Source of the DNA: Torpedo marmorata
Taxonomy: Eukaryota
NCBI GenBank assembly: GCA_977017645.1
Contig: OZ360225.1
Location: 147,374,001-147,438,000, forward strand
Length of the DNA stretch: 64,000 bases
Reading direction: 5' to 3'
Every line of letters begins with the position of its first letter. Positions within the stretch are counted from its first letter, which is position 1. Of the stretch, positions 519-21,222 are shown piece after piece. A program made the translations under genes and the position numbers. The notes below the pieces were generated by a model. It worked only from the letters and a program-made list of their open reading frames with translations, was not told the DNA's origin and ran no database searches.

Positions 519-704
519 ATGGAGGTTCCCAGCACCGAAGACGCTAGTCCTGCCGCCCCGTACAGGAATGTGAAGGCAATCAAGGTGCCGGCAGCCCCCA
601 GCATCGAGGACTTTGTTATTATCAAACCCATCAGCCATGGGGCATTTGGTAAAGTGTACCTGGCTCGGAAAAAACACCCCGAGAATAAGGTGTATGCAGT
701 CAAG
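519..704 (+). CDS. MASTL: MASTL (Greatwall kinase) first coding exon, 62 codons; possibly an orphan or duplicated copy
   Basis: MEVPSTEDASPAAPYRNVKAIKVPAAPSIEDFVIIKPISHGAFGKVYLARKKHPENKVYAVK matches the MASTL N-terminus (PSIEEFSIVKPISRGAFGKVYLG...YAVK). It ends at AAG|GCAAGT, a phase-0 GC-type donor. No exon 2 was recognised in the window. Confidence 0.85.
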
Positions 705-1174
705 GCAAGTACTGGATTCAGTGGTCAGCTGAAATACGATAGCTGAAGATTTGCTGCAATCGAAACTAAATGAGCCACGTTATGTCTTTTGGTGTTCTAG
801 TGCAGAAAGATTGTAATTTTCTCGTGACATTTGGGCATGTGTAGGCGTGCTTGGTGGCTGTGGGGCAGAACTCGCTCATCCATGGTTCTTTTTTAAACGT
901 GGATTAACATGATGTATATATAATGATTTATTGGATGCCCAGGCATTCTTGGACTGACCAAAATGGCTTGCTTTGGGGGCAATATACTAGTTGACTTAAA
1001 ATATGACAGAAAATTACAAAAATAGGTTATATAAAAAAAAACAGTACGTGATAGGAAAATCTTAAGGTGGATTTCGTGATCAGCAGCCCAATATCCATAA
1101 AATACACCTAAACGTATTCAGGAAGCAAAATCTTCATTGTCCAGTGATATCTTTTGAACATTATCACTATTCTT

Positions 1175-1967
1175 ACCTCTACCGCTTCCTCTGGTATCTC
1201 ATTTCACATACCTCAACCCCTCTGTTTGAGGTCCCTTTTAAATCTTTTCCTTCAAACTTTAAACCAATGGCCTTTAGTTTTAGACTTCAGTACTCTGGGA
1301 AAAAAGATTCTGGCTATTTACCTTATCTACGTCCATAGAACATTACAGCACAGCACAGGCCCTTCAACCCACGATGTTGTGCCGACCTATGTAAACCTAC
1401 TCCACAACAATCTCATCTTTCTCGATATCCTGTTGCCCACTGTATTTTAAATACCCCTTAATGTAAGGTCACTGTTCACCCTGCTGTGCCCCAGAGAGAA
1501 TGTCCCAGCCTATCCAGCCTCTCCTAATAACTCAAGCTAGCCAGTTCCAGTAAGATCCTTGTGAACCTTTTCTGCACCCTTTTCAGTTAATGGCATCTTT
1601 CCTCTGTCTGGCTGACCAGACCCGCACACAATACCCCAAATGCTTCTCATTAATGTCTTGTGCGGTTGTATCATAACGTTCTAACTCCTTTATTCAATAT
1701 CGTGACCAATGAAGGCAAGCATGCCAAATGTCTTCTTCACCACACTGTTTACCTGTGTTGCTGCTTTCAAGGAGCTTAGCCCTGTTCAACAACACTCTCC
1801 AGGGCCCTACCATTTTCTGTGTAAGTCCTACCTTGGTTTGACTTACCAAAATACAATATCTCCCACATTTGAATTCCGTTCCAACTGTCATTCCTTGACC
1901 CACTTTCCCATTTCATCCAGATCCTGTTGTAATCTCATAACCACCTTCACTGTCCACAATACCACCA
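1175..1967 (-). mobile_element. Degraded CR1-type LINE 3' fragments
   Basis: Matches the CR1 3' ends seen elsewhere in the window (CATAGAACATTACAGCACAG...AGGCCCTTC, CACACAATACCCCAAATG). Confidence 0.6.
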
Positions 1968-2218
1968 ATTTTTAGATTTTAGATTTAGACATACAGGCCA
2001 TTTCGGCCCACGAGTCCGTGCCGCGCAATTACACCCAATTAACCTACACCCCCGGTATGTTTTGAACGGTGGGAGGAAACCGGAGCCCCCGGGGAAAACC
2101 CACGTAAACACAGGGAGAACGTACAAACTCCTTACAGACAGCGCGGGATTCGAATCCCGGTCCCGATCGCTGGCGCTGTAAAGGCGTTGCGCTAACCGCT
2201 CCGCTAACCGTGCCGCCC
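1968..2218 (-). mobile_element. tRNA-derived V-SINE, near full length
   Basis: The minus strand has an A-box-like head GGCACGGTTAGCGGAGCGG, B box GGATTCGAATCCC, V-domain GGGGGCTCCGGTTTCCTCCCAC, a LINE-like tail and terminal (TCTAAA)n repeats. Confidence 0.85.
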
Positions 2219-17510: not shown

Positions 17511-18039
17511 GTAAAACACGAAAATCAGTAGAGACTGTGGTTGAAGTAAAAACACAATGCTGGAGAAACTCAGCAGGTCAAACAGTGTTCTTTATATAGC
17601 AAAGGTAAAAATACATAACCGATGTTTCGGGCTTGAACCCTTCATCAAGGTATGGAAAAATGTTGGCAGGCGTCCGAACAAAAGAGTAGGGGGGGAGGTG
17701 TGGTCACAAAGGTAGGAGGTGATAGGTGGAGAAGGGAGGGAGGGGACAGCAGCGATCAAGGGGAGACGGGAAGGCTAGGTGAATAGAGAGGGAAGGGGGG
17801 AGGAGAACTGGAAAGGGGAAGGGAGAAGAGGAGAGCAGGTTAGCAGAAACCGGAAAAGTCGATGTTAATGCCATCTGGCTGGAGAGTGCCCAGACGGAAA
17901 ATCAGGTGTTGTTCCTCCAATTTACGGGTGGTCTTGGTGGGATAGTACATAAGGCCATAGACAGACATGTGAGTGTGATACAGAACTGAAATAGTTGGCT
18001 ACTGGGATGACTGCTGAGTTTCTCCAGCATTGTGTTTTT
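17511..18039 (-). mobile_element. Penelope-like element 3' fragment with an inverted pLTR piece
   Basis: 16-bp TSD ACTCCGATACTCAATA; end of GIY-YIG; 18011-18041 is the reverse complement of 17546-17576; hammerhead-like core at 17621-17648. Confidence 0.85.
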
Positions 18040-20126
18040 ACTCCGATACTCAATAATTTGATTTATGAAGGCCAATGTGCCAAAATCTCACTTTACGACC
18101 CTATCTAGGGAATTATTTATCTGTATTCCTGGATCCCTCTGTTCTACCTCACTCCTCAGTGCTCTACTGTTTACCCTGTATGTCCTACCTTGGCTTGTCC
18201 TTCCAAAATACAACACTTCTCTGCATTAAATTCCATCTCCCATTTTGCACCCCATTTTTACAGCTGCTCCAGATCCCTCTGCAAGCTTTGAAAGCCTTAG
18301 AACACCTTCCAATAACTTACCTACTACTGATATCATGTTCACCAGCCTATAATTTCCTGGGTTAATTTTGGAACCTTTTTTAAACAATGAAACAATATGG
18401 GCTTCGCTCCAATCCTCCAGCCTTTCACCCGTGGCTAAGTACATTTTAAATGTATCTGCCGGAGACACTGAAATTTCTACACTAGACTCCCTCAAGGTCC
18501 AAGGAAATACCTTGTCAGGCCCTGGGGATTTATCCACCTTTATTCACTTTAAGATAGCAATCACCTCCTCCTCTTTAATCTGCTTGTTTGCCTCACTTCC
18601 CTAGACTCTGTGCCAGTTTTCAGAGTAAATACAGATGCAAAAAAAACATTTAAGATCTCCCCCATCTCTACTGGCTCTATACATAGCCAACCACAATGAT
18701 CTTCAAAGGGACCAATTTTGTCTCTTACTATCATTTTGCTCTTAATATACCTTCAGAAGTCCTGAAGATTTTCCTTCACCTTGTCTGCCTAAGCAACCTC
18801 ATGTCTTCTTTTAGCCCTTCTGATTTCCTCTTGTTTTTTTTCCTGCATTTTTTATACTTCTGATGTATCTCATTTGCTCCTTGTTGCCTATATCTGCTGT
18901 ATACCTCTCTCTTCTTATCCAGATTCCTGATATTCCTCAAAAACCAAGGTTCCTTATGCCTGTTAACTTTGCCTTTAAGCCTTGCAGGACCATACAAACT
19001 CTGTACTCTCAAAATTTCACCTTTGAAGGCCTTCAACTTACCGAGCACATCCTTGCAAAAACAAACCTTTCTAATTTAGGCCTTACTCCAATTTAGAATC
19101 TCTACCCAAGGCCCAGACCTATCCTTATCCATAATTATCTTGAAACTAATGGCATTATGATCACTGGACCCAAAGTGTTCCCCAACGCATACTGTACTTC
19201 TGTCACCTGCCCTGTCTCATTCCCTATTAGGAGAACCAGTATTGCACTCTCTCTGGTTGGTACCTTGATATATTGATTTAGAAAAATTCCCTGAACGCAT
19301 TTGACAAACTCTAAGCCATCCAGCCCTTTTACAGTATGGGAAATATGTGCAAAGTTAAAATCACCCACCATCACAACTTTATGGGGCTGAGCTGATTGGC
19401 TTCCAGCACACAGTCATCCTCCTTTATGCAAGATGTTTCCAGCCAGTGGAGTATATTCCTCAGCTCCAAATGTTGTCAATGTAATTTGGACATCTTGACA
19501 TGCCCTCTTTTTTTCCCCCTTACCATGGGAAAGAATTTTGACTATCTACCCTGTCTGGGCATCTCATAATCTTATACATTTCCATCAGGTCAGAACTCAT
19601 CTTCCTTTGCTCCAGGGAAAACAAGCCCAGCCATCCTATTTGTCCCCATATTAAAGTCCATCAATCCAGAAAACATCCTGGTGAATCTCCCTGCATTCTC
19701 TCCAGTTTAATCACCAATTCAAAATACTGGAACTCCATAACCAATAATATCCCTGGGGTGCTTTTCTGCAGTCTGCAGGCATTGAGGAAGGTGACTCAGC
19801 ATCATCTATTGAAGAACAGTTTGGGATGGGTGCAAATGTCTTCGCCACAACATGTACATCTCATAAATTAATCAATAAGAATCATCAAAGGAATGCTCAT
19901 AATAATTGAGGAACGACATTCATAAATACTTACTTTCACATTATCTTCAACAGTTTTGTTTTCACAATTGCTTCCAATTTCTGCAAAACAAATCAACCTT
20001 TCATTCATTATTGGACATGCAGCACATGTGCAATTTTTGGTGAGAAAATTTGGTACACTTATGAGAAAATATTAGGGTTAGGGCTAGACCTTTTTTTTTT
20101 GGAGCTAATGGATGCATGTTTCGGTT

Positions 20127-21222
20127 TTGTGAGTGCTCTGTGTAGATCTAACCTGTGGTAGGGGACCCTCAAAATACTGTACGATAACATTTACCTTTTG
20201 AAAAATCATTATGATGTTACATTAAACACACCTCCACAATTCCTGATGGCATGTTTGAAGAGATCGCAGTTGCAGCATTATTCCTGCGAGGAATCATGGG
20301 AAGTGGGTCATGCCTTAAAAGTGCACTCCCATGGCAACAAAAAACGCCAAACACAAATAATCTATCACTTAAATATTGGCTAATCCAAACATTGTATGAT
20401 GTGCAGACTGCAAATTAACTAAACATGTAGATTAGATTTGGTTGGATGTTCAGAGGTGATTTGAAACAGGTTTCAGGCATAAAGCAGAGCAGGTCTTTGA
20501 GACTTTGATTTAAAGTTCACCATTGCTGCTGAGGGGCTGCTATTATTTTCAGAGGTTCAATTATTTTTCCTTTCTCTCAGGTGAAGATAATCTACCATGA
20601 CTGGCAAATCACAGACCAGCAATATTACCAATAAGAATGATCCAAGGTCCATCAATTCCAGAGTCTTCATTGGCAACCTCAACACAGCCATTGTGAAAAA
20701 AGCTGATATAGAAGCTATTTTTGCAAAATACGGAAAAATAGTTGGCTGCTCTGTGCACAAAGGATATGCGTTTGTACAGTACTTGAGTGAAAGGAATGCA
20801 CGTGCCGCGGTGGCGGGGGAAAATTCCAGAATAGTTGCAGGACAACCCCTCGGTAAGATCACCTTATTTTCTACTGAAGTTTTGTTTTTGTGTGCCTAAA
20901 AATCTTTTAAAAAGGATGCATTCAATGCAAAGAATGTTTAGGATCGTGTATGTTTGAATAAACCATAGTAAATGCTGCTTGAAATTAAATTTCACCAGAA
21001 ATGTGTGTTGTGAGTGCTATGTGTTGATCCAACCTGTGGTAGGGGACCCTCAAAAAACTGTACGATTGTTAACATTTACCTTTTGAAAAATCATTATGAT
21101 GTTACATTAAACACACCTCTGCAATTCCTGATGGCATGTTTGAAGAGATCGCAGCTGCAGCATTATTGCTGCGAGGAATCATGGGAAGTGGGTCATGCCT
21201 TAAAAGTGCACACCCCATGGCA
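20127..21222. repeat. ~210-bp direct repeat pair (20127-20336 and 21008-21222) flanking the RALYL exon
   Basis: Colinear copies TTGTGAGTGCT...ACCTGTGGTAGGGGACCCTCAAAA...GGAATCATGGGAAGTGGGTCATGCCTTAAAAGTGCAC...CCATGGCA. Confidence 0.92.
20597..20852 (+). CDS. RALYL: RALYL (hnRNP C family RNA-binding protein) first coding exon, RRM domain; exon spans 20581-20852
   Basis: [85 protein letters not shown]; acceptor TTTTCCTTTCTCTCAG ending at 20580; phase-1 donor G|GTAAGA at 20853. Confidence 0.95.

Follow-up and report, generated by a model that had tools for sequence, protein, structure and literature searches.

An orphan MASTL exon 1 upstream of RALYL in the electric ray Torpedo marmorata belongs to a multi-copy repeat probably spread by a mobile element

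The stretch of contig OZ360225.1 of the electric ray Torpedo marmorata analyzed here (64,000 nucleotides, hereafter the window) has no N and consists mostly of retroelements. On its forward strand it carries pieces of two host genes: a copy of coding exon 1 of MASTL (Greatwall) at 519-704 and the first full coding exon of RALYL at 20581-20852. The MASTL exon copy is an open frame of 62 codons, and its translation has Greatwall kinase as the top PDB matches (E 4e-10), which bears out the original prediction, made from the letters alone, that MASTL exon 1 lies here. The product is 82% identical to Pristis MASTL and matches MASTL isoform X1 of Narcine bancroftii at 55 of 62 residues; five of the seven differing residues are found in other rays, and two (G7E and R40H) are private to the copy. 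Six exon residues are common to the copy and N. bancroftii against all eight of the other batoid proteins, which dates the capture that we propose below to the electric-ray side. Codon 40 reads CAT (636-638), so that Arg is replaced by His and an ATG is created at 637, both as predicted; across 75 MASTL matches residue 40 is Arg in 67, the pattern is unmatched in 8, and His occurs in none. The donor at 705 is of the GC type (AAG/GCAAGT), not GT; it may be common to the repeat family described below and perhaps to the parent gene too.

Beyond 519-704 and 20597-20851, we found no further MASTL or RALYL exons when seven full-length MASTL and five RALYL proteins were searched against the whole 64-kb window (tblastn); the remaining matches (E ≥ 0.012) are chance-like, and the predicted lack of MASTL exon 2 in the window is thereby confirmed. 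The RALYL exon, also correctly foreseen downstream on the same strand, has its ATG at 20597, an acceptor at 20580, a GT donor, and an RNA recognition motif (RRM; Pfam RRM_1, E 2e-12), and all 85 of its amino acids (aa) are identical to those of N. bancroftii RALYL isoforms X1-X3. The computed splice 704>20581 yields 79 codons that stop at 20632-20634, out of the RALYL frame and overlapping the RALYL ATG, in agreement with the upstream open reading frame (uORF) originally described. The region 5' of the ATG exon is taken to be intronic, given that RALYL isoform X5 and the equivalent isoforms of three other species point to an exon farther upstream, which the window lacks. The N-terminal extensions of N. 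bancroftii MASTL isoform X2 and RALYL isoform X5 are both absent from the window; according to its annotation, the former isoform (P0218) has, instead of exon 1, an N-terminus of 39 residues that is unrelated to it. The annotations of Narcine, Hemitrygon, Pristis, and Pristiophorus include a RALYL isoform (P0199, P0201, P0204, and P0210) that lacks the RRM and begins with 13 conserved residues; the window does not contain the first exon of this isoform. A direct repeat of 213-218 bp (93% identical) lies on either side of the RALYL RRM exon, at 20124-20336 and 21005-21222, 881 bp apart, and could permit deletion of this exon via unequal recombination.

The MASTL piece is present only once in the window; however, the segment 436-882 that includes it is a multi-copy repeat in all four of the sequencing runs with which we compared it. 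The comparison material was assembled contigs from four of 14 listed public runs (X1, X3, X4, and X5), mapped to positions 1-5380 only; these runs come from relatives, none being from the window's own sample (best share 0.17), and none of the listed runs is recorded as RNA, although X4 may be. The mapping details that we use cover 15 of 479 joints, none of them at 704, and 24 of 3352 loose ends, none of them at 415, 436, 704, or 882; of the variant rows they cover 40 of 368, and of the pieces 32 of ~230000. Mostly single-copy host DNA at 2590-5380, presumably RALYL intron, served as the depth control (five run X1 pieces 97.9-99.2% alike, depth 5.5-16.8). Run X1 is from a close relative, as its unique flank is 98-99% alike, with one contig per listed unique site. 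Its depth at five exon sites is 3386-5306, or 233-365 times the unique-bin median of 14.55 (exon bin mean 592 times), and the contigs carrying a variant number 46, 32, 15, 12, and 22 at positions 539, 556, 614, 637, and 647, compared with a single contig at each listed unique site. In run X5 exon depth is 18-79 versus ~3.7 for single contigs (i.e., ~5-21 times), whereas runs X3 and X4 assemble 436-882 at 96% identity yet hold none of the unique flank and have no depth on 2590-5380 outside small repeats. We read these depths as hundreds of copies in X1 and tens in X5, as orders of magnitude only, since summed contig depth is not copy number.

The exon does not travel alone. An upstream piece at 436-518, on the same strand as the exon and joined to it within single contigs of X3 (436-882) and X4 (437-711), probably represents the MASTL 5' untranslated region (UTR) or proximal promoter; it contains a reverse CCAAT at 478-482, and 57 variant contigs were seen at position 473 in run X1. 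On the other side, the GC-type donor is followed by what appears to be the first 178 bp of MASTL intron 1, unspliced (705-882, forward strand). Contigs pass unspliced across 704/705 in X3 (436-882), X4 (682-882), and X5 (584-749 and 680-853), and all five listed pieces that extend beyond 704 remain unspliced. The limits at 436/437 and 882 are common to the X3 and X4 contigs. We infer that 436-518 and 705-882 both derive from the MASTL locus. As the intron is kept, the piece is not a retrocopy of spliced mRNA and was captured as DNA; a processed pseudogene was ruled out by the single exon with its donor and intron and by the lack of exon 2. The MASTL promoter claimed originally was not borne out as an observation, because only the 83 bp of 436-518 travel with the exon and a separate repeat block lies upstream. 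Human MASTL and YME1L1 are arranged head-to-head; a look by eye only at 1-518 recognized no YME1L1 first exon.

The family has decayed at a residue that is otherwise invariant in MASTL. At position 637, run X1 has C at 3920 of 4551 depth, which makes codon 40 Pro, and the single X3 contig likewise has C; no C was found in X4 and X5. The window copy differs from the majority of all four runs at 473, 489, 512, 539, 556, 614, and 647, and is thus an older, drifted member of the family: it is ~4% away from the family (16 of 447 positions relative to X3), versus 1-2% between the flank and X1. An upstream ATG at 512 is private to the window copy; most X1 copies, and X3, lack the ATG at 637. No variant was listed at position 706 for the four runs among the variant rows covered.

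For the parent gene, annotated proteins of relatives were searched in place of the source assembly. N. bancroftii has a complete 950-aa MASTL (isoform X1) with its own exon 1 on a contig of 494,489,450 bp, and its RALYL is on a contig of 376,162,909 bp; the two genes are on contigs of differing size in all 11 elasmobranchs with both genes listed. Both outcomes had been proposed as checks in the original prediction, namely an intact MASTL elsewhere and a comparison of gene order among sharks and rays. Because the intact N. bancroftii gene sits on a different contig from RALYL, the window copy is, judging from sequence comparison, a displaced partial MASTL and not the working gene. It resembles the ray MASTL genes (proteins P0003-P0013 and P0313) in its exon 1 codons and in its phase-0 end, which in those genes precedes the VVKKAD exon, and differs from them in lacking further exons, in R40H, and in being multi-copy. 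An assembly join, or a true MASTL exon 1 misplaced beside RALYL, had been raised as another possibility. Among the listed contigs none bridges the repeats between 1146 and 2590, and five of the seven sites that differ from N. bancroftii MASTL carry residues of other rays, as a true exon of another species could. Yet the window has no N, His40 is found in none of the 75 MASTLs, the copy departs from the family consensus along its whole length, and a multi-copy family accounts for the placement with no need for a join; we consider an assembly error very unlikely.

Upstream of the MASTL piece lies another repeat, which we call block A (1-415) and which extends past the window start by 436 bp or more. 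Its depth in X1 is 12160-15599, compared with 8-26 on the unique flank, and single X3 and X4 contigs span 1-415 with 13 differences, their match ending at 415. The ratio of block A to exon depth is 1.1-3.2 in all four runs. When scaled to unique depth, X1 exceeds X5 by ~30-50 times for block A and for the exon alike, compared with 1.6-fold for a short interspersed element (SINE) and 5-fold for the transposon end described below, which suggests, from two calibrated runs only, that block A and the exon moved together. None of the 16 stop-free frames of block A has a Pfam family above the cutoff (best E 0.13-0.23), and its matches in the ESM Atlas are hypothetical clusters only; the one match in a search of 1.84 billion proteins, a repetitive bacterial Ig-like protein, was rejected as chance. 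The end of block A may resemble the end of a long terminal repeat (LTR) or an initiator-tRNA primer site. Between block A and the MASTL piece is a G-rich spacer of 20 bp (416-435) that is unmatched by the flanking X3 and X4 pieces, which end at 415 and start at 436/437, and that marks a deletion or insertion junction in this copy. The spacer has no partner repeat within the window and a fold z of 0.44; it may resemble a Harbinger or hAT terminus.

Downstream of the MASTL piece, 883-1146 (forward strand) forms the 3' end of a DNA transposon of the Chapaev3 type (CMC) that is present in very many copies. Depth in X1 rises at ~883, the left limit as estimated from depth, to 355000-397000 (~24000 times unique) and falls at 1146, where three X4 pieces also stop. 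Chapaev3 elements are described as terminating in GTG and duplicating TWA ahead of T (passages of PMC4079192 and PMC3014272). The segment 1117-1146 matches the published 3' terminus of the Chapaev3 family Conan, which ends in GTG, at 22 of the last 30 positions (PMC4079192, in the parts on this family); it is the best site in the window, and a score of 22 was reached in one of 200 shuffles. The window differs from Conan in that neither a Chapaev3 5' CAC terminus enclosing the MASTL piece nor a transposase was recognized in it, and the Chapaev passages of the two sources describe no gene capture. The left end of the carrier lies before window position 1. Of 12 CTRR-T sites in 1-2400, none has the GC-rich stem of a Helitron 3' end, and viral and prokaryote contigs and phages gave no matches to the element.

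These neighbors also bear on whether tandem or segmental duplication, in satellite-like or subtelomeric blocks, multiplied the MASTL piece, the Chapaev end being a mere neighbor. No junction of the family with a transposon end was observed, and its left end lies beyond the window; block A, with its GC content of 51% and its many CpG sites, could be native MASTL upstream DNA. Duplication of this kind fits poorly, however, with a single copy in 64 kb, with a different chromosome from that of MASTL (assuming the N. bancroftii layout), with sharp limits at 436/437 and 882 common to two species, and with a 30-fold abundance gap between runs that suggests a burst. We regard it as unlikely. The preferred reading is that a 5' piece of MASTL was captured as DNA by a mobile element and amplified in electric rays, and that one copy was inserted in a RALYL intron; we consider this probable, with the spread being by transposition. 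As for the carrier, a Chapaev3/CMC Pack element with its 3' end at 1146 is our first, tentative candidate; the element owning block A itself, LTR-like or other, comes second as a possible carrier, a Helitron or another element is more doubtful, and amplification by something other than a transposon is improbable.

Several observations weigh against capture by a mobile element as we propose it. The contigs of X3 and X4 depart from the window at 882 (with 62 and 47 other letters, respectively) and at 415/436, none running from 882 into 883, so the window copy is either internally rearranged or a nest of separate insertions, and it need not be typical of the family that the MASTL piece adjoins block A on one side and the Chapaev end on the other. 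With 41-346 times the abundance of the exon, the Chapaev end could be a chance neighbor. Position 1146 is followed by ATA-T, which departs from TWA-T in a single letter; ATA is listed in table S3 as a rare exception to the TWA duplication. The exon frame is still open, and the donor is intact. In the coelacanth, the gar, the bowfin, and several teleosts, the MASTL and RALYL contigs are equal in size, so that the two genes share a chromosome there. Finally, the support comes from contig depth, which is rough and gives no copy number, and the dispersion of copies, both ends of the element, and the target-site duplication are outside its reach.

Under capture and transposition, the course of events would be as follows. 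In an electric-ray lineage, a mobile element would have taken the 5' end of MASTL as DNA, from a short stretch ahead of exon 1 through that exon into intron 1. The resulting cassette would have multiplied, reaching hundreds of copies in the closest of the sampled relatives and tens in another, and an older, internally rearranged copy would have been inserted in the RALYL 5' intron, in the sense direction, ~20 kb ahead of the ATG exon. The copy would most likely be a passenger with no role, inert in its present position, with a working MASTL elsewhere. Were it spliced into RALYL, the 79-codon out-of-frame uORF with its early stop would likely make the transcript a target of nonsense-mediated decay, as is the established rule for such reading frames. 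If a genome of several Gb (a size assumed from chromosome sizes) contains some hundreds of copies, dozens of genes should have one within 20 kb of a coding exon. Since such chance placements are expected, the RALYL position needs no function or selection, and the placement by itself is probably chance.

The original prediction went further and proposed that a duplicated or rearranged MASTL promoter may now serve as an alternative RALYL 5' exon. The displaced partial copy stood, whereas a one-off recruited event did not, given that the piece is multi-copy in all four runs and the listed contigs are unspliced past 704; occasional chimeric splicing from 704 to 20581 may still occur. Nevertheless, a copy of transposon origin could have been co-opted as an alternative promoter or first exon of RALYL, with cell-cycle-linked transcription or control by a uORF. 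Such co-option would be consistent with the sense orientation, the consensus GC donor, the open frame, the reverse CCAAT, and an observed-to-expected CpG ratio of ~0.75 over 1-800. The private ATG at 637 would be in frame with RALYL after the 704>20581 splice and would give a uORF of 23 codons that stops at 20582-20584, ending 12 nucleotides short of the RALYL ATG. There is also a precedent in the bat Helitron-borne NUBPL exon 1 that splices into SGSM3 (described in part of PMC4224331). However, just 83 bp of upstream sequence are left in the window copy, the main product is out of frame, none of the five listed pieces beyond 704 is spliced, the drift of the copy from its family resembles that of neutral DNA, and with hundreds of copies a chance intronic landing would be expected. 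We therefore regard co-option as improbable. A wider version, that a Chapaev3/CMC Pack element has scattered hundreds of CCAAT-bearing MASTL promoter and exon 1 cassettes with a live donor, some of which, including that of the window, provide host genes with spliced new first exons or with uORF traps, is also unlikely.

The rest of the window contains further repeats. Two related LTR retrotransposons lie on opposite strands at 7861-12243 and 44701-49862, with broken reverse transcriptase, RNase H, and integrase frames; their LTR pairs are ~83% and 95% alike, respectively, and the second carries an insert at ~47356-48179. The reverse transcriptase of a long interspersed element (LINE) occupies an open frame of 641 codons at 30181-32106, with a partial copy (96% alike) at 36794-37686. 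A repeat of 950-990 bp, present three times (5390-6366, 24615-25561, and 32827-33776; 87-95% alike), probably represents solo LTRs or a non-autonomous element. Another repeat, at 16869-17254 and 38319-38581, has an internal inversion between its copies (262 bp direct, 95%; 139 bp inverted, 88%). A search of the window against Rfam gave no matches, and six open reading frames (ORFs) of the window had no match in the protein collection. Metagenome contigs yielded 80 loci, all of them distant kinases, with none above 76% over 25 or more residues and none from a ray. Matches of the exon read-through ORF in the Atlas (0.98) were short hypothetical clusters and were set aside as uninformative.

Host genes whose 5' ends have been amplified to high copy by DNA elements are well known from plants and from bat Helitrons. 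The closest known case to the one described here is bat HelibatN3, in which a NUBPL segment running from the promoter through the 5' UTR and exon 1 into intron 1 was amplified to a thousand copies, and one copy splices into SGSM3 with a premature stop; according to the same passages, 5' gene ends are preferentially captured and amplified (PMC4224331). The likeness lies in the anatomy of the cargo, which combines upstream sequence with a 5' UTR (a probable one in the ray), the first exon, and a portion of intron 1 at high copy; the bat case differs in its mammal host and Helitron carrier. Animal Pack-TIRs, transposons with terminal inverted repeats (TIRs) that carry host DNA and are sometimes fused to adjacent transcripts, offer a second likeness. 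In the relevant passages of the survey of 100 genomes, 370 cases were reported, mostly hAT and TcMariner, with four multicopy, the multicopy frog Pack-TIR having three copies and the elephant shark, the only cartilaginous fish among those genomes, having none (PMC8277862); the ray family differs in its tens to hundreds of copies and in its adjoining Chapaev3-type end. We found nothing in listings of the open-access literature joining MASTL and RALYL, nor any MASTL capture, repeat, or duplicate in rays, nor gene capture by Chapaev; passages of PMC5381603 and of a preprint on genome size in sharks and rays had nothing to add. If true, a family of tens to hundreds of MASTL exon 1 cassettes in electric rays would add a case to those known from vertebrates, and its carrier might come from a superfamily new to this role; were the cassettes Chapaev3 Pack elements, they would far exceed any vertebrate Pack-TIR in that survey. 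For annotation, the finding is a warning that lone MASTL exon 1 matches in electric-ray genomes are repeats. For the biology of these rays, the cassettes would provide a test of whether host transcripts are rewired, or silencing RNAs are directed at an essential cell-cycle gene.

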